Origin: an uncultured Thermodesulfobacteriota bacterium
GTDB lineage: Bacteria > Desulfobacterota > WTBG01 > CAIYCZ01 > CAIRTM01
Assembly (NCBI GenBank): GCA_964518865.1
Contig: CAZFIB010000013.1
Location: forward strand, 2,777 to 66,776
Direction: 5' to 3'
DNA length: 64,000 bases
Shown here: piece after piece, positions 2,478 through 54,385 of the stretch
Numbering within the stretch: the stretch's first letter is position 1
Layout of the letters: the number at the start of each line of letters is the position of its first letter
The notes under the pieces: model-generated
Told to the model about the DNA's origin: nothing
The model's input: the letters and a program-made list of their open reading frames with translations, nothing else
Databases searched by the model: none
Program-made: the position numbers and the translations under genes

Positions 2478-4463
2478 ATGGCTGAAGAGAAAAAATCAAT
2501 GACTTCCGTTGCGTCCGAAGGGTACAAGCGCGTATTTGATATCCCCAAGGACCTGCAGGAAAAAGCGCACGTCAAGAGCATTGAACAGTACGAAGAAATG
2601 TACAAACGCTCCATCGAGGACCCGGAAGGTTTCTGGGGCGAGCAGGCCGAGCAGAATCTTGATTTCTTCAAGAAATGGGACAAGGTCCTGGACTATGAAT
2701 GGGGCGACAAGGTGCGCATCGAGTGGTTCAAGGGAGCCAAGCTGAATGTGTCCTGCAACTGCCTGGACCGCCACATCAAGACCGAGCGCAAAAACAAGGC
2801 TGCAATCATGTGGCAGGGCGAGCCGGTCGACGAGGCGCGCACCTATACCTATATCGAACTGTATTACGAGGTCAACAAGTTCGCCAACGTGCTGAAGAAA
2901 AAGGGCGTCAAAAAAGGCGACCGCGTATCCATCTACCTGCCCATGATTCCCGAGCTGCCGATCGCCATGCTGGCCTGCGCCCGTATCGGCGCAATCCACA
3001 GCATCGTATTCGGCGGTTTCAGCGCCGACGCTCTGCGCGACCGCATTCTTGACTGTGATGCCAGGGTGCTGATCACCAGCGATGCGAGCTACCGCTCGGG
3101 CAAGGTCATCCCCCTGAAGGGCAATGCCGACCAGGCCCTGAATGAATGCCCGAACGTCGCAACCACGATCGTCGTCAATCGCACCGGCACCGATGTTCCC
3201 ATGAAGGAGGGCCGCGATGTGTGGTGGCATGAGGAGATGAATGCCAAGGGGCTGCCTTCATACTGCGAGCCCGAACAGATGGACGCCGAGGACCCGCTGT
3301 TTATTCTCTATACATCCGGTTCCACCGGCAAGCCCAAGGGCGTGCTTCACACGACCGCCGGCTACCTGCTGTACACGAATGTAACGCTGAAGTATACCTT
3401 CGATCTGCAGGAAGAAGACACCTTCTGGTGCACGGCCGATATCGGCTGGGTAACCGGTCACAGCTACATTGTCTACGGCCCCCTGTCGAACGGCGCTGCA
3501 AGCGTTATGTTCGAGGGCGTGCCCAGCTATCCGGACTACTCCCGTTTCTGGCAGATAGTTGAAAAATACAAAATCAACCAGTTTTACACCGCACCGACCG
3601 CTATCCGCGCCATCAATGCTCAGGGCGACTCCTGGCTCGACGGCATCGACCTGTCAAGCCTGCGCATTCTCGGCACGGTCGGCGAGCCGATCAATCCCGA
3701 GGCATGGATGTGGTATTACAACAAAATCGGCGGCGGCAAATGCCCCATCGTCGACACCTACTGGCAGACCGAGACCGGCGGCTTCCTGATCACGCCGCTG
3801 CCCGGTGCGATGAAAATCAAGCCCGGCTCCGCCAATCGCCCCTTCTTCGGCATCAAGCCTGCGATTATCCGTGAAGACGGCTCCGAGGTGGATGTGAACG
3901 AAGGCGGTCACCTGACGGTCACCCAGCCCTGGCCGGGCATGATGCGTACGGTGTACGGCGATCATGACCGTTTCAAAGAGACCTATTTCAGCCAGTTCCC
4001 CGGCAAGTACTATACCGGTGACGGCGCCCGGATCGACGACGACGGCGACTTTATCCTGATGGGCCGCCTCGATGACGTTATCAACGTATCCGGTCACCGC
4101 ATGGGTACCGCCGAGGTTGAAAGCGCGCTTGTTGCGCATGAAAAGGTTGCAGAGGCAGCGGTTGTGGGTATGCCCCATGAGATCAAGGGGCAGGGCATCT
4201 ATGCATTCGTGACCCTGAACTCGGGAGTCGAGGGTACCGATGATCTGAAGAAGGTGCTGGTCAAGCACGTGCGCTCCGAGATCGGCCCCATCGCGACACC
4301 CGACAAAATCCAGTTTGCCGCGGGTCTTCCCAAAACACGCAGCGGCAAAATCATGCGCCGCATCCTGAAGAAGATAGCAGCAGGCGATACCGGAGAACTC
4401 GGTGATACGTCCACGCTGGCCGATCCTTCAGTTGTCGACGACCTGATTTCCGGCAAGCAGTAG
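2478..4463 (+). CDS. acs: Acetyl-CoA synthetase (AMP-forming).
   Basis: [57 protein letters not shown]... with a [14 protein letters not shown]-binding motif and a C-terminal GKIMRR. RBS AGGAGG at 2461-2466. The ORF track begins at 2430, but the ATG at 2478 has the RBS. Confidence 0.95.
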
Positions 4464-10503: not shown

Positions 10504-10692
10504 TGCGGTCACGCAACTTTGACGGTTCCGTAAAAAGTCCATCTGCTGCGTTGCGCGGCATCTTCAGTCATTGCGGCGTACAAACAAGTACGCCTCATTT
10601 CTTCAGATTTGCGCGCCTTGCATCTGAAGCTTTTTACAAAACCGCCCCGTTTCTTGCTTTTTACGACTTCATCAATTTTAAATGTCATAATC

Positions 10693-10792
10693 TACTATGG
10701 CCATTCTGTTACTTCGAAGGAGCAGGGCGACTGAGAAATATCACGCCCTGAAGAGATTTCTCCCTTCGGTCGAAATGACAAAAAACAGATGG
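10693..10792 (+). repeat. Repeat family A, copy A2.
   Basis: tactatggccattctgttacttcgaaggagcagggcgactgagaaatatcacgccctgaagagatttctcccttcggtcgaaatgacaaaaaacagatgg. It differs from A1 by point changes and 1-nt indels. Confidence 0.8.
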
Positions 10793-10892
10793 TTATAGAA
10801 AATAGAAAATTACTCTATGTAAAAAAGTTGATTGCAAATATAGCATTAAAATGTTATTTAATATTATTAAATAACAATAATATGTTATTTAT

Positions 10893-11026
10893 GGCATTTA
10901 TTGATAGAGTGCAGCCGTGCAGGAGCGGCCTCCGTCCGCGAAAAAAATTGCAGCTAAAGCAGCTCCCGCATTTTCGCACCACACGGCGGGCACCGAAAAA
11001 AGGCTGTAGAACAGAGTGAAGTGCAC
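10893..11026 (+). repeat. Repeat family B, copy B1 (~133-bp structured element).
   Basis: ggcatttattgatagagtgcagccgtgcaggagcGGCCTCCGTCCGCgaaaaaaattgcagctaaagcagctcccgcattttcgcaccacacggcgggcaccgaaaaaaggctgtagaacagagtgaagtgcac. About 80% identical to the copies at 45256-45388 and 51372-51500 (the latter in reverse orientation). Confidence 0.75.
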
Positions 11027-11076
11027 GGGACCATCAATTTTAAGATATATGCTGCTATAAAACGTACAGGGGGTTT

Positions 11077-12222
11077 ATGCTGTTTCGTCGGTTGCTCGAC
11101 CTTGAAAAACTGAAAAGTTCAGCATTTGTTTTCGGTCCCCGGATGACCGGTAAAACGACGTTGCTGCACAGGCTGGGCTCCGATGCGGCCTTCGATTTGC
11201 TTGACCCGGAACTGGAACTCGAATACCGGGCAAACCCGAAACTCTTCTGGGAGGTCGTTTCCGCTTTAGCCGAAAACTCACTGGTAGTGATTGATGAAAT
11301 ACAGAAAGTGCCGGCACTTTTGAACTATGTTCAAATGGGAATGGATCGCTTCAATCACAGGTTCATTCTTACCGGATCGAGTGCCAGGAAGCTCAAGCGG
11401 GGCGGGGCTAACCTGCTTGGCGGAAGAAGCCTCGACTTGAAACTTCACCCCTTGACGCACGAAGAGCTGGAAAATCATTTTTCCATCGACCGTGCATTAC
11501 TGTACGGGACGCTTCCGAAAATAGCCGCTCTGCTTGTCGATCAGGATGTCTCGCTCGCTAAAAAACATCTCAGAAGCTATGTGACAACGTATATCAAGGA
11601 GGAAGTTCAGGCTGAAGCGCTTACCCGGAACCTTGGCGCCTTCCAGCGGTTTTTGAACGTTGCCGGTCAAAGCAACGGGCAGATTGTTGAATTCTCCAAT
11701 ATTTCACGGGAATGCGCGGTTCCGGCAAGTACCGTCAAAGAGTATTACCAGATTCTGGAAGACACGCTGCTCGGCTTTTTTCTATGGCCGTTCGATCGCA
11801 ATGAGCGGAAGAAAGCGCGACCGAAATTTTATTTTTTTGACTGTGGTGTTGTTCGATCCATTCAAAACAGACTGGAAGATCCTCCGACGGCCCCTGAGAC
11901 GGGTTTTTTATTTGAAACCTGGTTTGTAACGGAAGTTATCCGTATACGGGATTATTATGAAAAAGACCATCAGATAGCCTTCTGGCGCAGCCGGAACCAT
12001 GAAATAGATATTATCATTTCAGGAGGGCACGGGCCGATACTGGCTATTGAGTGCAAGTCGGGAAAATCGGACGTTGCCGGTTCGACCTTCCATGCATTTA
12101 AAACCTCTTTCCCCGGAACGCCGTTACTCGTTGCTTCGCTTACTGATGACCGCCCCAGGAGAGCGGGCGGCGTCGATATCCTGCCCTGGCGACAGGTGCT
12201 CGAAACGTACCGTATGCTGTAA
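11077..12222 (+). CDS. AAA+ ATPase of the COG1373 type (AAA_14 plus a DUF4143-like C-terminal domain).
   Basis: 381 aa. Walker A GPRMTGKTTLL. Walker B LVVIDEIQKVP. The C-terminal region is typical of this orphan ATPase family. Confidence 0.75.
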   Translation: MLFRRLLDLEKLKSSAFVFGPRMTGKTTLLHRLGSDAAFDLLDPELELEYRANPKLFWEVVSALAENSLVVIDEIQKVPALLNYVQMGMDRFNHRFILTGSSARKLKRGGANLLGGRSLDLKLHPLTHEELENHFSIDRALLYGTLPKIAALLVDQDVSLAKKHLRSYVTTYIKEEVQAEALTRNLGAFQRFLNVAGQSNGQIVEFSNISRECAVPASTVKEYYQILEDTLLGFFLWPFDRNERKKARPKFYFFDCGVVRSIQNRLEDPPTAPETGFLFETWFVTEVIRIRDYYEKDHQIAFWRSRNHEIDIIISGGHGPILAIECKSGKSDVAGSTFHAFKTSFPGTPLLVASLTDDRPRRAGGVDILPWRQVLETYRML

Positions 12223-12352
12223 ATGTCTCCACCCGCCCCGCAGTATTGCATGTACCGGTATCCTGTAGCCGCAAACCGGATTCCGGAATCAAGAGGCTGT
12301 GTCGTAATGCATTCATATGCGATTTCGAGCAACAGCGGGAAACGGCAAGGTT

Positions 12353-14133: not shown

Positions 14134-16569
14134 ATGAGTTCTGAAACCATCATTTCACCGGTGTCCTCCGGGCACCAGTATCCCGGCGTGCCATCCCTAG
14201 GTAAGCTGACGGCGGTCTATTTTCTCTTTTTCGTTTCGGGCGCAACCGGTCTGGTGTACGAGGTTGTCTGGAGCCGGATGCTTGTGCTGGTGACCGGCAA
14301 TACCGCCGCTGCCACGTCGCTCATTCTGGCAGCGTTCATGGCCGGCCTCACCCTCGGAAGTTTTTTCTGGGGACGCTTTGTCGTGCAATGGCGGTTCAGC
14401 GGCCTTGTGCTGTTCGGCTGCCTCGAGGCCGCAACCGGCCTGCTGGCGCTGTGTGTGCCCGTGTGTATCAGCCGGGCCGCAGGGGTCGAAGCAGCGCTCA
14501 TGGCCGCGGTTCCCTGGCACCAGCCTGTGCGGTTCGGCTATTGTTTTCTGGTGCTTCTGGGACCTGCCTTTCTCATGGGGGGAACCTATGCCGTACTCGG
14601 GCACCACATTATCCGAAGGCGCCGCCGGTTCGGACGACATGCGTCACTGCTGTATGCCGTCAACACACTCGGTGCGGCTGCCGGCTCGCTGCTTACCGGT
14701 TTTCTGCTGATACGGCTGCTGGGGCACACGGGCAGCATTACTGCAGCGGCACTTGTCAACCTGGCAGTCGGCGGGAGTGCCCTTTTTTTCGGCCTCCGGA
14801 AAAGCCTGCTGCCGGACGTTGCCGAGCCTGACCGGCTGGGTGAGAATGGAACGTCGGGGCCGTCGGTGCCCCGGACAGTTGCCGTGACAGCTCTTGTTGC
14901 GGTGACCGTCAACGGTTTCTGCAGCATCGCCTATCAGGTGCTGTGGACGCGGCTGCTCGTGCTTGTTGTAGATAACTCCGTTTATTCGTTTGCCTTTATG
15001 CTTACCTGCTTTCTGCTCGGCATGGGGCTTGGCAGCCTCTGGCTCGGGATGCTTGACGGCTTTGTGCGCAGGCAGCCGGTTGTGACATACGGGCTGGTCT
15101 GTGCCGGTATGGGTATTTCATCCTTTTTCGTGCCCTTTTTCATAGCGTGCAGTCCGCCGGACCCGGCCCAGCCGTACTGGGTGTTCCTGCTGCAGCGGCT
15201 GCCCCCCTTTGTGTTCGTGCCGACGCTGTTTATGGGCATGAGCGTGCCGCTTGCCGCCCGACTGTATGCGGTTCGTGCCTGCGGGACGGGAAAGCGGCTG
15301 GGCATTGTGTACGGGCTCAGTACGGCAGGCGGTGTGCTGGGGGCTCTGGCAGCCGCTGTCCTGCTGCTTCCCGTGATGGGGGTTCGCACAAGCCTGCTGC
15401 TGCTGCCCGCCCTGAGCATTGTGTGCGGGGGGCTGCTGCTGGTGCAGCACTTCAAGGGTTTGCAGGCCCTGGGCGTTGCCGGCCTGATGACCGTTCTCTT
15501 CGTCACCGGGCCGCTGCTCATGCCTGAAAATTATTTTGCAGACAAATACAGCGGCCTGGAGCCGGGCAGCGAGCTGCTCTACTATGAAGAAAGCCTGGCT
15601 GCAACCGCAACGGTTTTCAGGCGTCCGGACGGCAATGTGCTGCTGTACCTGAACGGCATTCCCGAAGTCGACACCACCAGGCTGTCGGTTATGACGTTCA
15701 AGCTGCTCGGTGCGCTTCCCTGCCTGCTGCACCGTGGTCCCGGGCGCGCGCTGATGATAACATTCGGGGCAGGTATTACCTCAGGCACGGCGGCTCTGTT
15801 TGCCGACCGCGTCGACTGTGTCGACCTTGCCGGGCAGGCGCGGCGTATCGCCGCGCTGTTCAGGCCGGTCAACAACGGTGTTGCTGCGCTTCCGAACGCA
15901 ACCCTGCATATTGATGACGCGCGTCATTTTCTGCAGACCGACATGCAGCGCTATGCGGTCATTGTCTCCGATGCGACGCATCCGCGCTCCTATGACTCCT
16001 GGATACTCTATACGGAAGAGTTTTACCGCCTGGTAGCGCAGCGCCTCGGCCCCCAGGGTGTTTTCTGCCAGTGGGTGCCGTTCCACGGCCTGGCCCCGCA
16101 GCAGTTTGCAAGCATCATAGCGACATTTCACAGTGTGTTTCCTCACACATCGCTGTGGCGGATCGGGCAGGGATATGCCGTGCTTGCCGCAACACCGGAA
16201 GAACTGCGCATTGACGTAAAAAACATGTTTGCGCGTCTTTCCGCGCCTGATGTGCAGCGCGATCTGAAAATGGTGGGTCTCGACAATCTTTTTGAGCTGC
16301 TTGCCTGCTTTGTGATGGGTGAGCAGCGGGTCGGCGGCATTGCGCGTACCGCATCCACGGTCATCCGTGACAACAGCCCCGCAAACCTTTTTTTTCCGTT
16401 CACCGCGACCCTCGATGAACAGTACCAGGGATGGCCGCGGGAGAATTTCTCCCTGATCGCTCAGCATGAGGAGTCAATAGAGCCCTACCTTGCAAACATC
16501 AGCAGTAATCCAGAGGACCGCCGCAAAATTATCGACATCATGAAAAAATATGAACAGCGCCGCAGGTGA
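14134..16569 (+). CDS. Fused MFS-like polytopic membrane domain / spermidine synthase-like (aminopropyltransferase fold) protein.
   Basis: 811 aa. N-terminal ~12 TM helices beginning FLFFVSGATGLVYEVVWSRML. C-terminal SpeE-like domain ALMITFGAGITSGTAALFADRVDCVDLAGQARRIAALF...LHIDDARHFLQTDMQRYAVIVSDATHP. Confidence 0.8.
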   Translation: MSSETIISPVSSGHQYPGVPSLGKLTAVYFLFFVSGATGLVYEVVWSRMLVLVTGNTAAATSLILAAFMAGLTLGSFFWGRFVVQWRFSGLVLFGCLEAATGLLALCVPVCISRAAGVEAALMAAVPWHQPVRFGYCFLVLLGPAFLMGGTYAVLGHHIIRRRRRFGRHASLLYAVNTLGAAAGSLLTGFLLIRLLGHTGSITAAALVNLAVGGSALFFGLRKSLLPDVAEPDRLGENGTSGPSVPRTVAVTALVAVTVNGFCSIAYQVLWTRLLVLVVDNSVYSFAFMLTCFLLGMGLGSLWLGMLDGFVRRQPVVTYGLVCAGMGISSFFVPFFIACSPPDPAQPYWVFLLQRLPPFVFVPTLFMGMSVPLAARLYAVRACGTGKRLGIVYGLSTAGGVLGALAAAVLLLPVMGVRTSLLLLPALSIVCGGLLLVQHFKGLQALGVAGLMTVLFVTGPLLMPENYFADKYSGLEPGSELLYYEESLAATATVFRRPDGNVLLYLNGIPEVDTTRLSVMTFKLLGALPCLLHRGPGRALMITFGAGITSGTAALFADRVDCVDLAGQARRIAALFRPVNNGVAALPNATLHIDDARHFLQTDMQRYAVIVSDATHPRSYDSWILYTEEFYRLVAQRLGPQGVFCQWVPFHGLAPQQFASIIATFHSVFPHTSLWRIGQGYAVLAATPEELRIDVKNMFARLSAPDVQRDLKMVGLDNLFELLACFVMGEQRVGGIARTASTVIRDNSPANLFFPFTATLDEQYQGWPRENFSLIAQHEESIEPYLANISSNPEDRRKIIDIMKKYEQRRR

Positions 16570-32670: not shown

Positions 32671-32762
32671 GGAGAGATGGCCGAGCTGGCTGAAGGTGCA
32701 CGACTGGAAATCGTGTGTGCGTTAACAGCGTACCGAGGGTTCGAATCCCTCTCTCTCCGCCA
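32671..32762 (+). tRNA. tRNA-Ser (anticodon GGA).
   Basis: GGAGAGA-TG-GCCGAGCTGGCTGAAGGTG-CACGA-CTGGAAA-TCGTG-long variable arm-GAGGG-TTCGAAT-CCCTC-TCTCTCC-G-CCA. CCA is encoded. 92 nt. Confidence 0.9.
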
Positions 32763-32912
32763 TTTATATCCGGAAACCAGGAATGTAGCCGGATCCCAAG
32801 CAACAGGTGATTTGCGAACCCCGCCAGGTCCGGAAGGAAGCAACGGTAGTAAAGATCCTGTGTGTTTGGTGTATCCGGCTATTTTTCCTCTCTGCCCGGT
32901 CGTGCCGACGTC

Positions 32913-43524: not shown

Positions 43525-44275
43525 GGTCGTTCGCAAGGCAACGCGGATACTTGCGGGCGGTTTTTGTGATGTGCTTTTCCCGCCGCAGTGCCTGCTGTGC
43601 GGCTCGACGGTCGAGCAGCGGGAGTACGGCAGCCTGTGCAGCTCCTGCATCGCTGAAATGCCGATATGCGCCGGTCCCGTCTGTTCGCAATGCGGTGCGC
43701 CGTTTGTTTCAGAGGAAGGTTCGGATCATCTATGCGGATCGTGCATCGTGCGACCTCCGCGGTACGACCAGGCCCGGGCGGTCGGCACCTACAGTGGATA
43801 TTTGCGGGAAGCGATACAGCTCTTTAAATACGGCAAAAAAACATTATTTGCACGGCCCCTGGGCACTCTGCTGGCTGATCATGGTAAAAGACTTTTACCC
43901 GGAACGCGCTATGATAGTATCGTACCCGTGCCGCTTCACCGCCGCAGGCTTCGTCGACGGTGCTTTAATCAGTCACTGATGCTTGCCCGCCGGGTCGGCG
44001 CGCTGTGGGGGGTGCGTGTGAGCATATCGGGGTTCAAACGGATACACTGGACCGACCCGCAGGTGGGTCTTGCACTGGCTGAACGAAGACGGAATATAAA
44101 GGGTGCTTTCGCCTGCAGCGCGGGACTGTTTTCCGGTGCCCGCGTGCTGCTGGTCGACGATGTCTACACGAGCGGTGCAACGGTGAATGAATGCGCAGCA
44201 GTGCTGAAAAGGGCAGGAGCCGTAACCGTAGATGTTTTAACGCTCGCACGAGCACAACGGGAGAATGAACGTTGA
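43466..44275 (+). CDS. comF: ComF-family phosphoribosyltransferase.
   Basis: N-terminal Cys pairs (CLLCG...CSSC...CSQCG...CGSC) and a PRT motif VLLVDDVYTSGAT. The start is uncertain and overlaps the rsfS 3' end. Confidence 0.7.
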   Translation: MKTFGRIAREYRLRLCHQSRVVRKATRILAGGFCDVLFPPQCLLCGSTVEQREYGSLCSSCIAEMPICAGPVCSQCGAPFVSEEGSDHLCGSCIVRPPRYDQARAVGTYSGYLREAIQLFKYGKKTLFARPLGTLLADHGKRLLPGTRYDSIVPVPLHRRRLRRRCFNQSLMLARRVGALWGVRVSISGFKRIHWTDPQVGLALAERRRNIKGAFACSAGLFSGARVLLVDDVYTSGATVNECAAVLKRAGAVTVDVLTLARAQRENER

Positions 44276-45249
44276 ATAGACTGGACAGCGTATTTGATAT
44301 CGTTGCGGACGAGATGAAGGTTGTTGAAAAAACACTGTTGGCGCATGTCGGAAGCGATATAGACCAAATTAACAGTATCTGCTCGTATGTTTTCAAAAGC
44401 GGGGGCAAGCGGCTGCGGCCGCTGATACTGCTGCTTGCGGCACGCTGCTGCGGGTATCAGGGCGACAGCCATATTACCGTTGCCTGCGTGATGGAGTATA
44501 TTCATACGGCTACACTTCTGCATGACGATGTAATCGACCATGCCGAGATACGACGGGGCAATTCTTCGGCAAACATACTCTGGGGCAACCAGTCGACGAT
44601 ACTGAGCGGTGACTTTCTGTTTGCCAAGGCCTTTTCGCTTGCTGTCTCGATCCATGATATCGAAGTACTCGATATCATCGCCGAGACCTGCAGCCGTCTT
44701 GCAGAGGCCGAAATGATGCAGGTTATCAAAGCAGGGGACCCCCGAATAACGGAACAGGAGTACTTTACAATCATTACCGATAAAACGGCATCCCTTTTTT
44801 CCGCCTGCACACGCATCGGCGGAATTCTCGGCCGGGTGTCCGGGGAGAAAGTAAAAGCCGTAGAGCGCTACGGCCACCACTTCGGCATAGCTTTTCAGAT
44901 TATGGATGATGTGCTTGACTATTCCGCCCGCGAAGAGGACCTCGGCAAGACTATCGGCAAAGACCTGCAGGAAGGCAGCATAACCCTTCCCTTTATTGCC
45001 GCCCTGGAACGAAGCTCACCGCAGGACCGTGATTGTCTGCTCAATGCCTTCGGCCCGGGCAGCGTATCACCGGAAAACCTTTCGAGAATTATCAAAATTG
45101 TCGAGCACTACAAGGGCAGCGATTATGCTGTAGCGCGTGCGCGCGACCATGTGCAGCATGCCATCGATGCGCTTGAGGCTTTTAAAGATCGTGATGCGGT
45201 ACAGCCGCTCATCGATCTGGCGAAGTACGTCGTTGAGCGCACATCATGA
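44272..45249 (+). CDS. ispB: Polyprenyl diphosphate synthase (IspB-like).
   Basis: FARM LLHDDVIDHAEIRRG and second DD motif FQIMDDVLD. Confidence 0.85.
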   Translation: MNRLDSVFDIVADEMKVVEKTLLAHVGSDIDQINSICSYVFKSGGKRLRPLILLLAARCCGYQGDSHITVACVMEYIHTATLLHDDVIDHAEIRRGNSSANILWGNQSTILSGDFLFAKAFSLAVSIHDIEVLDIIAETCSRLAEAEMMQVIKAGDPRITEQEYFTIITDKTASLFSACTRIGGILGRVSGEKVKAVERYGHHFGIAFQIMDDVLDYSAREEDLGKTIGKDLQEGSITLPFIAALERSSPQDRDCLLNAFGPGSVSPENLSRIIKIVEHYKGSDYAVARARDHVQHAIDALEAFKDRDAVQPLIDLAKYVVERTS

Positions 45250-45255
45250 TGCTGT

Positions 45256-45388
45256 GGCATGTATCAAAATAATGCAGCCGGGCAGGAGCGGCCTCCGGCC
45301 GCAAAAAGAATCGCAGCCAACGCAGCTCCTGCATTTTCGCACAACCTGCGGGCACCGGACTAAGGCTATGGAATAGGGTGAAATGCAC
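45256..45388 (+). repeat. Repeat family B, copy B2.
   Basis: ggcatgtatcaaaataatgcagccgggcaggagcGGCCTCCGGCCGCaaaaagaatcgcagccaacgcagctcctgcattttcgcacaacctgcgggcaccggactaaggctatggaatagggtgaaatgcac. It abuts the stop of the minus-strand gene at 45388. Confidence 0.75.
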
Positions 45389-45756
45389 TAGCGCTGAATG
45401 GTTTTATCGATTTCATACTCGAGGTAATAGGTGTATCCGGGAAACTCCAGTGCGGTCTCCCACCAGACGTAGATGTTGAGGCTGTGCGGCCTGGCCGTAA
45501 TTTCTACATCTTCTTCATACAGCTCGATGCCGATTTTTTCGGCTTTCAGAATAACTTCGTTTCGGATTTTGTCGGCATCTTTGGGCCCTGCTCCCGCATT
45601 GGCCCAGTATTTTGTGATTGTAGTCACCTCCTCCTTCAGCGATTCATAGTCCCACTGTGCGTACCCCCACTTCAGACCAAACCAGACTCCAATTGCAATC
45701 AGCAGTATCGGGAAGATACAGCCGACGGCCGAGCCTCCTCGCATGGATTTCAGCAT
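45388..45756 (-). CDS. Hypothetical small membrane-anchored protein.
   Basis: 122 aa. N-terminal TM CIFPILLIAIGVWFGL. Co-oriented with the downstream dtd. Confidence 0.55.
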   Translation of the reverse strand: MLKSMRGGSAVGCIFPILLIAIGVWFGLKWGYAQWDYESLKEEVTTITKYWANAGAGPKDADKIRNEVILKAEKIGIELYEEDVEITARPHSLNIYVWWETALEFPGYTYYLEYEIDKTIQR

Positions 45757-49712: not shown

Positions 49713-51224
49713 ATGGCCCGGCTACCGTGTTTTCCCGTTTGTTCCGTGCTGCTTATTGTGCTCTGGATCACTCCTGCAGCGTATTCGCATGATACCTGCT
49801 CGATCGAACTCGACTGCAGCGATGCAGAAGGTACGGTGCGGCCCTTTGCCGAGATAAACTGCGGACCGATTCCGGTCTCTGCATCCGCAACCCAGGTCGA
49901 TGTGACCCGCCAGTTTCAGGAAATCGGCATTACCTCAGTGCGAACGCATGATTTTTACGGTCCGACCGACATATCCATGATATTTCCGGACTGGACGGCG
50001 GACCCGTCCCTGGCGTCCAGCTATGATTTTTCAGAAAGCGACCGTCATATAAACAGTATCGTCGACGGCGGGTTCGAGGTTTTTTTTCGCCTGGGGGAGA
50101 GTGCAAGCGACAATGAGTCGCTGCGGCAGCCGCCGCCCGATTTTTCCGTCTGGGCCGAGGTGTGCAGGCACGTTGTCATGCATTACAATGAGGGATGGGC
50201 CGAAGGTTACCGCTACGATATACGGTACTGGGAGATATGGAACGAGCCCGACCTGGACGGTTTCTGGGCGGGAACCGCTGAGGACTATTATGAGCTGTAC
50301 CGGCTGGCTGCCGAAACCCTCAAAGCGCACGACCCCGACTTGAAGGTCGGCGGGCCGTGCACGTCGAACATAGCCGACGAGCGCTTTGCCGGAGGCTTTC
50401 TTGCCTATATCGATGAACATGATGTGCCGCTTGATTTTTATTCGTGGCACAACTATGCCGACTCCCCGGCAGAGCTGTACGGCAATGCCCTGGCCGTCCG
50501 CAGCATGCTTGACGCCTGCGGGCTGACCGGCTGTGAGAATATCAATACCGAGTGGAACATAAATATTCTCTATCCCCAGCGCGACAATGATAATGCCAAG
50601 AACGCGGCCTTTACCGCCTCCTGCCTGACCGCCTTTCAGGATGCGGGACTTGACCGCGCCTTTCGCTATCGCGCCACCCAGGATGACAGCAGCCTGCTGG
50701 GGCTGATGCTGGGATTCGACCTGAGCCTGTTTGCTGCTGACGGCACCTATAAAGCCCCCGCGCTTTCATATCTTGCGATGCAGTACCTGTACCGTGACAG
50801 CCCGCTGCGCCTTGCCTCCCCCGCAATGGACGCCTCGTCAGGCATTACCTGGCTGGCGGGAAAAGCCGCAGACGGCTCCTGCGTGTCAGTGCTTGTCAGC
50901 AACTACGAAACCGGCGATACGATGTGTAACGTGCGTATCGACAGTCTGCCGTTTCAGGGCGGCTATGCGGCGGCACGCTACCGGATCGACGACACCAGCC
51001 ACCTTGAGACGGTCGGTGCTGCAGCGGTGATGTCCGGTGCCTATGAGACATCCTTTGTGCTTAAGCGTAATTCCGTCGTGCTGCTGCGTCTGGCAGCGTC
51101 TCCCGATCAGCTTCCGCCGGAAGGACCGGCGGTTGCCGATATCCCGCTGCTGCTGCAGCTCAAAATTCTCGATCCAATATTCAAACTGCTCGGGTACTGG
51201 CTGCTGCTGGCAGTGTTCGGGTAG
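49713..51224 (+). CDS. Secreted glycoside hydrolase, (beta/alpha)8-barrel, GH39/GH5-like.
   Basis: Signal peptide. YWEIWNEPD (NEP catalytic-acid motif). WHNY. C-terminal hydrophobic tail. No exact family can be assigned without a search. Confidence 0.55.
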   Translation: MARLPCFPVCSVLLIVLWITPAAYSHDTCSIELDCSDAEGTVRPFAEINCGPIPVSASATQVDVTRQFQEIGITSVRTHDFYGPTDISMIFPDWTADPSLASSYDFSESDRHINSIVDGGFEVFFRLGESASDNESLRQPPPDFSVWAEVCRHVVMHYNEGWAEGYRYDIRYWEIWNEPDLDGFWAGTAEDYYELYRLAAETLKAHDPDLKVGGPCTSNIADERFAGGFLAYIDEHDVPLDFYSWHNYADSPAELYGNALAVRSMLDACGLTGCENINTEWNINILYPQRDNDNAKNAAFTASCLTAFQDAGLDRAFRYRATQDDSSLLGLMLGFDLSLFAADGTYKAPALSYLAMQYLYRDSPLRLASPAMDASSGITWLAGKAADGSCVSVLVSNYETGDTMCNVRIDSLPFQGGYAAARYRIDDTSHLETVGAAAVMSGAYETSFVLKRNSVVLLRLAASPDQLPPEGPAVADIPLLLQLKILDPIFKLLGYWLLLAVFG

Positions 51225-51371
51225 GTCGAAAAAATCATAAATGTGTGTCCGGCGAAGGCGGGAATCCAGTGCTTTCGTTTTCGACTGACTTCTCATCCCG
51301 CCGGGGCTGGATTCGAAATGACAGTACGGATCGGTGCGCACGGCACACCCTGCGGAAGCTTTTCCGCATTA

Positions 51372-51500
51372 GTGCACTTTACACTATTCCATAGCCTTTT
51401 TCCGGCGCCCGCCTGGTGGTGCGAAGCCGGAGCCTCTTTATCTGCGATTTATTTTCGCGGCCGGAGGCCGCTACCCGGCTTCATTGTTTTGGTACATGCC
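51372..51500 (-). repeat. Repeat family B, copy B3 (reverse orientation).
   Basis: Its revcomp reads ggcatgtaccaaaacaatgaagccgggtagcGGCCTCCGGCCGCgaaaataaatcgcagataaagaggctccggcttcgcaccaccaggcgggcgccggaaaaaggctatggaatagtgtaaagtgcac. Confidence 0.75.
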
Positions 51501-51518
51501 GTAGAGCCATTTTTACAC

Positions 51519-51620
51519 TACTATGGCCGTTCTGCCATTGCGAAGAAGCACAGCGACTGAGAAATCTCACGCCCCTGAGGAGATTTCTCCCTTCAATCGA
51601 AATGACAAAAAAAAGATGGC
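51519..51620 (+). repeat. Repeat family A, copy A3.
   Basis: ctactatggccgttctgccattgcgaagaagcacagcgactgagaaatctcacgcccctgaggagatttctcccttcaatcgaaatgacaaaaaaaagatggc. Confidence 0.8.
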
Positions 51621-51742
51621 TGCAAACAAGAGGAAACTGCTTCAGACGGCAGCAGTTCTATTCACCATAGAAGTAATAACAGGGAATATGGTATAATCAT
51701 TTGTGTTTTATATGCTATACACCAATGCGTGTGGAGGGGACG

Positions 51743-54385
51743 ATGAAACTAAAAAAACAAGGCATTGTATGCTGTCTGGCGTTGCTGGTTATGCTTCCCT
51801 GCTGCCGTACCGATCAGCCGTCGACTATCGAAGACGGATCGCAGTGGGAAACGGTCTGCGACCCGGGACTGGGAAACATCAAAAACTACTCAATCGTCGC
51901 CATGGCCGAGTTCCAGGGGCTTCTCTATGCAATGACCCGCAACGAGGAGGCCGGAGCCGAGGTCTGGCGCTACGGGGGAACATCCTGGGAGCAGGTTCCG
52001 TACCCTGACGGAGAAACAAACGGCATATACGGCAATCCGTGGCTGAACTGCCTGTGGGGCGAGATGATTGTTTTCAACGAAAAGCTCTACTGCGGTTTTT
52101 CCTCCGGCTGCCAGGGCCGGGTGCGCAGGTCAACCGGCTGCGAGATCTGGCGTTATGACGGCGATGTCTGGGAGCCGGTCATTTCGGACCGGCTCGATAC
52201 GGAAGAGAACGGTACGATTACCGGCATTGCCGGCTGTGACGACGCCGACACCGAAACAACAGCTTTTTTCACTGACGCGGGTAAAATCTGGGAGATTGAT
52301 CAGTGGGCCGGGGCCGTGCTGCAGATAACCTCGGGCGAGGGACGGTTCCGCCGGTTCGATATTATTGCAAACACCGCCGACACGCTTACCGTGCAGCAGA
52401 ACGAGGTCGACAGCACCGCAAACGATGACTTTACCGAATACACCGTCTGCGGCTCCCGGCACTTCGACAACCCCTTTCCGCCGCATGAGACGGATATCGG
52501 CGCAGTGGCGGCCGGCGATACCTATGAAATCGGCAGCGGCAGCGATGAAAACGGATTCGGCGACTACTGGAACCGCATGGTGACCGGCATGGTAATATTC
52601 GAGGACCGTCTCTATGTCAGCACCGGGCTGAATTACGAGCGCGGCGGCCAGATATGGTACTCCTCCGACGGTGATACCTGGCAGGTAACCAGCCCCGCAC
52701 ACAGCTTCGGCAACTACCACAACAATGAGCTTTACCCCACCGGCCTCAAGCCGGTCAGCACCAGCATCACCGACCTGTGCGTCTCGAGCGTTTCGGGCAA
52801 GCCCGTGCTGTACGCGGGCGGCACGGGCGCCTCGGGCGACAAGGGGCGCTGCTCGCGCATGGCGCGCCTGACCGACGAGGGCTGGGAGCTGATTGTCGAT
52901 GCGGGCGTTGACGACAATGACGAGGGCAGCAATGAAAACGGGTTCGGCTGCGGCATGGACTGCTCGATGTTCAACGGCGACTTCATGCCGTGGAGCCTGG
53001 CTGAGTTCAACGGCATGCTGCACGTGGGCATCCAGTCGATCGCGGGCGCGCGGGTCGTCTATACCCCCACCGGCAGCCCGGAGGACGGCAGCTGGTTTCA
53101 CAGCGTGGGAGGTGACGCCGCTCTGCCCAACGGCTTTGACAACAGCCGCAACCGCGGCAACTATTTTTATTACCAGAACACGGCCGCCAACCTGTATGTG
53201 TATGAGGACACCATGTATGCCGGGCTGGTGTCGCTGTACGCGCCGTCTATCGGCGCCCGGCAGGAGGATCTGACCGGCGCGCAGCTCTGGAAAACCGGCG
53301 ACGGGCTCAGCTGGACGCCGGTGACGCGCAACGGTTTCGGGGATACGAATGCCATCGCCTTTGATGCGTTTGCAGAATACAACGGCGAACTGTATGTGTC
53401 GGTCAACAAGGGAAGCGTCGACAGCCCCGAGGGACTGGAACCGGAGGAGGGCGGCCTGGTGTACCGGCAGGTGTCATACCCCCGGATGCCTGAGCCCGCC
53501 TATGATGCAGTGGAATCGTACACAACCGTTATGCCTCAAAACGGCGACCCGGTCGATATCCATCATCCGGTCCCGGCAGCCGTCCCTGAGGGCACGGTCC
53601 TGCCGGTTGCGCTGCTGCTGCAGGGCGGCCGGGTGGACAAACAGCACTACAGCTCCTACGCACGCATTGTCGCCGCCTACGGTTTTATCGTGCTGGTGCC
53701 GAATCACACCGCGACGTTTTCATTCCCGGGGTACTCATCCGAAGGGCTTTTTTCGCAGATGCGCCAGATTACCGATACGCTTGCGTATGCGGCCGAGCAG
53801 AACGACAATGCAACCTCCCCGCTTGCCGGCATCGTCGACACCGAACGGCTTGTCATGCTGGGGCACTCCTACGGCGCGGCCTGCACGATCGGCGCGATTC
53901 AGAACCAGTGCGAGTATCCCTTCTGCGAGGAGGGCGAAACCTTTACCCGGCCGCCCGAGCTGAAGGCCGCGGCCCTGTGCGGCATCAATACCAAGCCGCG
54001 CGGCAAGCCGTTCGACTACAAGATCAGGGAAACGGACAACGACGGCATCCCGCTGGCGTTCATCAACGGCAGCATCGACAACAATGCCCGCTACTGGGTG
54101 ACCAGGCGCTCGTACGCACTGATCGCTGATCCGCCCAAAATGCTGGTTTTTATCAACGGCGCAAATCATTATGCCATGTGCGACATCAACAACCCCGAGG
54201 GCCCCGGCGAAGATCCCAACGATCCCACGCTTTCGCAGAGCGTTTCCGTTGAGACGGCCGCCCGCTGGAGCGCCCTGTTTCTGCGGGCCTTTGCTCTCGA
54301 TGACGCCGACGCGCTGGCCTATGTCGGCAGTACGGGCGCAAGCCTCGATCCGAACGTGGAGGTGCTGATCGAAACCGGCGGGTAA
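51743..54385 (+). CDS. Secreted/lipoprotein fusion: BNR (Asp-box) beta-propeller-like N-terminal region plus C-terminal alpha/beta-hydrolase esterase domain.
   Basis: Signal peptide MKLKKQGIVCCLALLVMLPCC. Repeated SxDGxTW-like motifs (YSSDGDTWQV, KTGDGLSWTPV; EVWRYGGTSWEQV, EIWRYDGDVWEPV). GHSYGA nucleophile elbow. PVALLLQGGRVDKQHYSSYARIVAAYGFIVLVPNH (PAF-AH/chlorophyllase-like). The ORF track starts at 51701; the ATG at 51743 is preferred. Confidence 0.6.
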   Translation: MKLKKQGIVCCLALLVMLPCCRTDQPSTIEDGSQWETVCDPGLGNIKNYSIVAMAEFQGLLYAMTRNEEAGAEVWRYGGTSWEQVPYPDGETNGIYGNPWLNCLWGEMIVFNEKLYCGFSSGCQGRVRRSTGCEIWRYDGDVWEPVISDRLDTEENGTITGIAGCDDADTETTAFFTDAGKIWEIDQWAGAVLQITSGEGRFRRFDIIANTADTLTVQQNEVDSTANDDFTEYTVCGSRHFDNPFPPHETDIGAVAAGDTYEIGSGSDENGFGDYWNRMVTGMVIFEDRLYVSTGLNYERGGQIWYSSDGDTWQVTSPAHSFGNYHNNELYPTGLKPVSTSITDLCVSSVSGKPVLYAGGTGASGDKGRCSRMARLTDEGWELIVDAGVDDNDEGSNENGFGCGMDCSMFNGDFMPWSLAEFNGMLHVGIQSIAGARVVYTPTGSPEDGSWFHSVGGDAALPNGFDNSRNRGNYFYYQNTAANLYVYEDTMYAGLVSLYAPSIGARQEDLTGAQLWKTGDGLSWTPVTRNGFGDTNAIAFDAFAEYNGELYVSVNKGSVDSPEGLEPEEGGLVYRQVSYPRMPEPAYDAVESYTTVMPQNGDPVDIHHPVPAAVPEGTVLPVALLLQGGRVDKQHYSSYARIVAAYGFIVLVPNHTATFSFPGYSSEGLFSQMRQITDTLAYAAEQNDNATSPLAGIVDTERLVMLGHSYGAACTIGAIQNQCEYPFCEEGETFTRPPELKAAALCGINTKPRGKPFDYKIRETDNDGIPLAFINGSIDNNARYWVTRRSYALIADPPKMLVFINGANHYAMCDINNPEGPGEDPNDPTLSQSVSVETAARWSALFLRAFALDDADALAYVGSTGASLDPNVEVLIETGG

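Follow-up and report, generated by a model that had tools for sequence, protein, structure and literature searches.

A dispersed repeat family, probably of MITE type, with YTAR-type flanks in a deep-branching, uncultivated Desulfobacterota-like bacterium

Family B, a repeat found three times in the 64-kb stretch of DNA analysed here (the window), is probably a MITE-like element, that is, a small non-coding transposable element. Its terminal modules, YTAR flanks, empty orthologous sites and occurrence in pile-ups of repeats point to mobile DNA, and four features support membership of the MITE class: small size, no coding capacity, several copies and sites that are vacant in relatives. The copies are 128–133 bp long and non-coding, inside the usual MITE range of about 50–400 bp; three of them are dispersed over 64 kb, at 10.9, 45.3 and 51.4 kb; and the junction that holds the second copy is filled in some genomes and empty in others, the genomes compared being distant ones.

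Copies of family B and their two-part ends

An earlier note made from the window alone had placed three copies of the repeat in it, about 80% identical to one another, and both statements are borne out. Searches of the window with nhmmer recover all three (E 1e-42 to 1e-48), with pairwise identities of 80.5–83.5% over 127–133 aligned bases:

10893–11025, forward strand: B1, full copy of 133 bp (alignment, nhmmer)
45256–45387, forward strand: B2, full copy of 132 bp (alignment, nhmmer)
51373–51500, reverse strand: B3, full copy of 128 bp (alignment, nhmmer)

The copies have diverged by about 18% from one another, and B3 differs from B2 by two 3-nt deletions and two 1-nt insertions. An HMM built from the three copies finds no fourth full copy in the 64-kb window (nhmmer). 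The copies are alike from GGCAT, where similarity sets in abruptly, to TGCA(C), and the ends are conserved as had been described, reading GGCAT.TA... on the left and ...GGCT.T.GAA.AG.GT.AA.TGCA(C) on the right. The palindromic core assigned to the family needs a small correction: it is exact, GCGGCCTCCGGCCGC, in B2 and B3 (51457–51471 in the latter), but carries one mismatch in B1, GCGGCCTCCGTCCGC (10925–10939). The parts of B2 and its flanks are as follows:

45252–45255: left flank, CTGT
45256–45279, forward strand: left end module, GGCATGTATCAAAATAATGCAGCC, with GCAT.T at its tip and AGCC at positions 21–24
45282–45332, forward strand: long central hairpin, arms GCAGGAGC (45282–45289) and GCTCCTGC (45325–45332)
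45288–45302, forward strand: core palindrome, GCGGCC-TCC-GGCCGC
45364–45387, forward strand: right end module, GGCTATGGAATAGGGTGAAATGCA, an imperfect inverted copy of the left module (12/24 ungapped)
45388–45391: right flank, CTAG (YTAR), which includes the TAG stop codon of the gene on the minus strand

There is next to no chance that the repeat encodes a small protein or is the remnant of a duplicated gene. Reading frames are mostly open over B1 and B2 on the forward strand (QP.RSGLRP...HFRTT) and over B2 and B3 on the reverse strand (VHFTLFHSL...), but none is open in all three copies, and the protein-coding reading is effectively refuted by the indels between B2 and B3 (+1, +1, −3 and −3), which shift the frame. 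Searched against 5.8 billion sequences with E up to 10, the joined six-frame translations of B1–B3 (685 aa) gave no protein match.

The two ends of the repeat resemble each other in inverted orientation. Comparison of the first 24 nt of each B copy with the reverse complement of its last 24 nt gives 11–12 ungapped matches (p 0.006–0.02 against random 24-mers from the window), which fall on GCAT.T at the tip and on AGCC at positions 21–24. Inverted symmetry is also present in elements from the loci of two distant relatives, L006 and L010, where it reaches 15/24 in L006b (p 0.0007) and 14/24 in L010a (p 0.001), and Fisher's combination over seven element lineages yields p = 1.3e-6. The symmetry within B itself is weak, and a model of right ends only does not recover the left ends of B. 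From outside to inside, the consensus end consists of YTAR, [AGT]GCA[TC]TT[CT]AC, about ten variable bases and [CT]A[TC]AGCC, and this two-part end recurs on the three copies of a second family, A, on a 65-bp mini-element and on small intergenic repeats in L006 and L010:

4608–4750, forward strand: A1, family A, with end modules of the same type and flanks TTAG/TCAG
about 10681–10814, forward strand: A2, family A, left boundary uncertain
12247–12311, forward strand: C, candidate mini-element of 65 bp, a weak match (nhmmer E about 1–5)
51505–51641, forward strand: A3, family A, adjoining B3, flanks GTAG/TCAG
4298–4424 and 11043–11210 of L006: elements with two-part ends
10979–11165 and 11170–11330 of L010: elements with two-part ends

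In total, six or seven elements are present in the window and two or three each in L006 and L010. B3 and A3 stand head-to-head, 4 nt apart, with GTAG (51501–51504) between them. Their common end modules and YTAR-like flanks give A and B the look of two subfamilies that depend on a single transposase. A long hairpin, GTCATTTCGA..GAGAAATCTC..GAGATTTCTC..TCGAAATGAC, is present in family A as well; a match of A3 to the Chlorobi-1 RNA is weak (11.7 bits, E 2.3) and is not repeated on A1. The mini-element joins a B-like left end, TGCATGTACC..CTGTAGCC, to a B-like right end, GGCTGTGTCGTAATGCA, with 24 nt between them, and is located in the convergent spacer between a DUF4143 gene and a PHP-domain gene. 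When the end model was built from the relatives only, its best match outside the training set was the right end of B2 (E 0.011), followed by the tandem-junction end of L010 (E 0.11), B3 (E 0.18) and B1 (E 1.1). The right end module of B2 is the part that it has in common with the elements of distant relatives. One of these, L006a, also resembles B internally, with collinear blocks and equal length (nhmmer E 0.006–0.014).

Plasmid sequences contain no match to B2 (blastn), and a literature search found no match to the end sequence. An exact-pattern scan of genome, metagenome and viral contig collections for the right-end motif GGCTNTNGAANAGNGTNAANTGCAC returned chance matches only (L002–L004); these collections did not return the window's own copies, the source genome being absent from them. 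The paired ends GCATTTCAC N95-125 GTGAAATGC gave eight chance-type matches in viral contigs, none with the features of the family. A separate palindromic element of about 113 bp, GCATTTCACCGCG...GTGAAATGC, was seen at 1282–1394 of an IMG/VR contig (L016); its internal halves are repeated, YTAR flanks are absent, and it is probably unrelated to family B. In an independent short-read assembly (the Logan assembly of SRR7048224), contigs break off within B2 (45273 and 45290) and within A3 (51570), as expected for repeats, and B3 is spanned intact. Because contigs break there, B2 and A3 probably share exact k-mers with copies elsewhere in the metagenome.

Flanks, gene context and occupancy in relatives

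The flank pairs of the three copies are TTAT/CGGG for B1, CTGT/CTAG for B2 and CTAC/CTAA for B3, matching at 0/4, 2/4 and 3/4 positions, respectively, so that in B itself any target duplication would be a decayed one. YTAR is rare in the window, with 115 sites (0.0018 per position), 44 of them intergenic and 5 in stop codons, and the exact motif stands at 3 of the 10 well-defined element flanks there (p 7e-7; p = 2e-5 against the intergenic background). A YTAR-type flank is therefore clearly enriched. In the relatives, L006b is framed by a perfect TTAG/TTAG direct repeat, L006a has TTAG on its left, and the L010 elements have TTAG, CTAG and CTAA; exact YTAR occurs at three of four flanks in L006 (p = 2e-7) and at all three junctions in L010, statistics that are partly circular since the boundaries of these elements were drawn by eye with YTAR in mind. 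IS5 duplicates YTAR on insertion (PMC5009759), and IS630 inserts at TA, preferentially within CTAG (PMC2170065). The flanks of our elements show a YTAR target and fit a 4-bp duplication of IS5 type or a 2-bp TA duplication of IS630 type equally well.

B2 adjoins a stop codon, as the earlier note had observed. The C at 45388, which is also the last repeat base of B2, belongs to the stop of the minus-strand gene 45388–45756, and CTA at 45388–45390 is the reverse complement of that gene's TAG. At its other end, B2 begins 6 nt past the TGA stop of a polyprenyl synthase gene (44272–45249, forward strand), so that the 138-bp spacer between this gene and the convergent gene for a 122-aa protein is wholly taken up by B2; the 122-aa protein is not truncated by it. 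YTAR includes TAG or TAA, so insertion at such a site would sometimes hit a stop codon, and this would account for the position of B2, touching one stop and 6 nt from another. Special homing to stop codons was considered and rejected: 5 of 115 YTAR sites lie in stops and 3 of about 18 element flanks touch them, no excess beyond the preference for YTAR.

The polyprenyl synthase has homologues of at best 59% identity, and the few that are named come from MAGs of Desulfobacterota/Deltaproteobacteria (54% identity or less). A Chlorobi origin, which the sequence of family A had suggested, is rejected by this protein homology. Identical proteins were met on a single 68.6-kb NCBI contig and in a single sequencing run, SRR7048224, and nowhere else. 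Seven relatives keep the synteny of the B2 locus, which comprises a ComF-like gene, the polyprenyl synthase gene, the 122-aa gene, Dtd, DapB and, further on, RpoD. The stop-to-stop spacer between the polyprenyl synthase gene and the 122-aa gene has the following lengths:

Window: 138 bp (B2)
L009: 18 bp
L012: 14 bp
L013: 32 bp
L023: 3 bp
L024: 14 bp
L006: 403 bp
L010: 352 bp

The junction is thus filled in three genomes and only 3–32 bp long in five syntenic relatives, a comparison of distant genomes (55–59% protein identity) rather than of strains. In L010, the spacer is made of two tandem elements, L010a and L010b, which have one CTAG in common and whose outer ends touch both stop codons. 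The 403-bp spacer of L006 contains L006b, and its outer ends are the inverted arms of another repeat. The end and family models find nothing clearly significant in the five other 21-kb loci, those with short spacers (best E 0.76).

The other repeat of L006 has its arms, TAGGAGGCTGCCGGAGAAGG, at 10976–11003 and 11357–11384, where they touch both stops of the junction between the polyprenyl synthase gene and a 120-aa gene. A further arm-like copy at 15532–15557 overlaps the stop of an rpoD-like gene, and this repeat appears to be another TAG-targeting element family.

The other two copies of B have different surroundings. B1 lies 78 nt downstream of A2 and 51 nt upstream of a DUF4143 AAA-ATPase gene (11077–12222), and B3 lies with A3 between a GH39-like gene and the gene for an 894-aa protein with an esterase-like domain. 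B1 has the same direction as the two genes next to it, B3 is antisense to both of its neighbours, and B2 stands between convergent genes.

Both regions have features of their own. The DUF4143/AAA_14 ATPase gene (11077–12222, forward strand), with B1 upstream and mini-element C downstream, looks horizontally acquired: its homologues are 64–74% identical, the few that are named (64–66%) coming from MAGs of Omnitrophota, Elusimicrobia, Firestonebacteria and Riflebacteria, against 59% at most for the housekeeping polyprenyl synthase. A search for paralogues of the gene returned cross-phylum homologues and no paralogues. Upstream of this gene, in a 70-nt AT-rich stretch between A2 and B1, is a perfect 25-nt AT-rich palindrome, TGTTATTTAATA-T-TATTAAATAACA (10852–10876), which could be an operator or part of an acquired segment. 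The GH39-like gene and the gene for the 894-aa protein, whose esterase-like domain is of the PETase/chlorophyllase kind, occupy 49713–54385, between rpoD and lgt. In relatives, either lgt comes immediately or almost immediately after rpoD, or other variable genes do (toxin-antitoxin genes in L010), and the rpoD–lgt interval is a variable, insertion-prone region.

Taken as a MITE-like element, family B would move as follows. A DDE transposase acting in trans would bind the ends of about 24–27 bp and cut the element out or copy it, and the element would then enter a YTAR site at its TA, with 2 or 4 bases duplicated. The window and the relatives' loci examined yielded neither a transposase nor a full-length element with B-type ends, and no insertion polymorphism within the species was seen. 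Having taken the place of the whole convergent spacer, B2 may now terminate both genes through its GC-rich stem and flanking T/A runs. As the sole sequence between the two convergent genes, it must carry any terminators that they have, and judged from its sequence it is probably the terminator of both.

Hairpins and rival explanations

The long central hairpin of B2 is followed on the forward strand by ATTTT (45333–45337), which is terminator-like, and a T-rich tail (GCATTATTTT) comes after this region on the reverse strand. The earlier note had read such hairpins as a structured RNA, kept by compensatory change in the arms. Family B does form hairpins, with a long stem in every copy, but the evidence for structural selection disappears once the copies are aligned. 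The arms of B2 occupy columns 27–34 and 71–78 of the three-copy alignment and those of B3 columns 19–26 and 74–84, so the two arm pairs are different, non-homologous stems that compete for one 3′ strand, and the supposed compensatory change between them falls away. In B3, the 5′ arm of the B2-type stem is 3 nt shorter and another 3 nt have been deleted further downstream, and two one-sided substitutions complete a latent alternative pairing that is already present at 5–6 of 8 positions in B1 and B2. Among the 15 pairs of the central hairpin, none has changed in both partners, and no measure rises above the shuffles, a check of low power with three sequences.

It is accordingly quite unlikely that family B is a multi-copy structured non-coding RNA, either an sRNA gene or a cis-acting UTR element, with hairpins under selection at the RNA level. 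A long GC-rich hairpin is possible in every copy, B3 gained a new 8-bp stem through its substitutions and deletions after the old stem had lost 3 nt, and a small stem in the right module (CTAT/ATAG in B2 and B3, CTGT/ACAG in B1) represents a single double change. This small stem is not kept in the L006 elements, however, and the arm pairs of the earlier note occupy non-homologous columns with no two-sided change among the 15 central pairs. The folding energies are mixed: the opposite strand is moderately low against shuffles (z −0.95 to −2.3) and folds somewhat better than shuffles in B2 (−2.16) and B3 (−2.33), but the strand of the family is unremarkable (z −0.25 to −0.97). None of the three copies matches Rfam at the gathering score, and even at E up to 5–10 there is only noise. 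Similarity begins abruptly at GGCAT, so no conserved promoter lies upstream of the copies. A sigma-54 promoter was considered at TGGCAT...TGCA / TGGAAT...TGCA and rejected, the spacing being 18 and 15 nt and not 12. The orientation of the copies relative to genes is also inconsistent, and the placement of B1 and B3 between co-directional genes in opposite orientations argues against a strand-specific cis-RNA. The recurrence of a B-like right-end module at one gene junction in three distant genomes can be counted for an RNA, but the genera, like families A, B and C, have only the terminal modules in common, a pattern of transposase sites and not of an RNA core.

The only matches to Rfam at the gathering score in the window are a tRNA with a long variable arm (89 nt, 32671–32759, forward strand) and, 28 nt further on, a small SRP RNA (32787–32883, forward strand), whose end overlaps the listed start of the dnaX ORF (32862); RecR follows further on.

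The junction between the polyprenyl synthase gene and the 122-aa gene raises the idea that the B-type element, instead of having entered a hotspot repeatedly, is a conserved functional 3′-end cassette. It would be retained there because it acts as a small RNA or terminates transcription in both directions, and B1 and B3 would be secondary copies. The B-like right-end module does lie in one orientation against the stop of the 122-aa gene in all three genomes, whose housekeeping proteins are only 57–58% identical; we consider a cassette of this kind improbable. Also unlikely is a host-domesticated repeat of the REP/BIME or ERIC kind, retained for termination or mRNA 3′-end stability and moved by recombination or an enzyme of RAYT type rather than by a DDE transposase. 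B2 alone separates two convergent genes, and the family resembles the 127-bp ERIC elements in size and imperfect-palindrome build. Consensus terminator scans call hairpin-plus-T-tail sites in B2 (reverse strand) and B3 (forward strand), each downstream of a co-directional gene, but none in B1, which has no such tail and does not follow a gene on the strand concerned; on the forward strand, the stem of B1, like that of B2, is followed by ATTTT only. Moreover, the window contains no Y1/RAYT gene, the unit is about 130 bp long and not of the 20–40-nt REP type with its GTAG head, and GTAG is not conserved in it. A role in termination would by itself leave the YTAR flanks and the common terminal modules unexplained. 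In a MITE-like element, the hairpins would follow from its palindromic build.

If family B is such an element, the window shows how intergenic DNA, scarce in this deep-branching, uncultivated Desulfobacterota-like bacterium, is shaped by small non-autonomous transposons. Two families or more, A and B among them, would then stack at YTAR sites with one set of end modules and could replace whole convergent spacers, where they would probably go on to supply the terminators. Their repeats would break short-read assemblies of the source organism and could pass for structured RNAs in genome scans, and their ends would offer a handle for tracing the transposase. A MITE-like family is an ordinary kind of feature, and this reading changes no general concept.

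Comparison with known MITE-like elements

The Correia/NEMIS elements of Neisseria and the RUP elements of Streptococcus pneumoniae are intergenic, TA-targeting MITEs of 100–155 bp with inverted ends. They lie near gene ends, form long hairpins when transcribed and have been reported as terminators or processing sites, and their families comprise hundreds of near-identical copies with clear 26-bp inverted repeats. Family B is similar to them in size, build and TA target; hosts and sequences are unrelated, and the three B copies examined differ by about 18%. IS5 and IS630 make a similar choice of target (YTAR and TA within CTAG, respectively) but are autonomous elements of 1.1–1.2 kb that encode a transposase, and to our knowledge their ends have no apparent similarity to those of B.

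ERIC elements (IRU; PMC2759123 for the RU-1 class) are imperfect palindromes of about 127 bp that occur in intergenic transcribed regions in either orientation and are regarded as MITE-like. Unlike B, they have no defined YTAR target and are confined to Enterobacteriaceae and Vibrio, and their sequence is unrelated. MITEPsy1 of Pseudomonas syringae, an IS5-derived MITE of 100 nt, takes CTAG/YTAA as its target and duplicates 4 nt there (PMC3189936). [quoted passage not shown] The two have no sequence similarity, and B has weak inverted symmetry. Family B thus appears to resemble MITEPsy1, Correia/NEMIS, RUP and ERIC in size, build, target and genomic behaviour without a common sequence, and it seems to differ from known MITE-like elements in its weaker inverted repeats and its older, more diverged copies.
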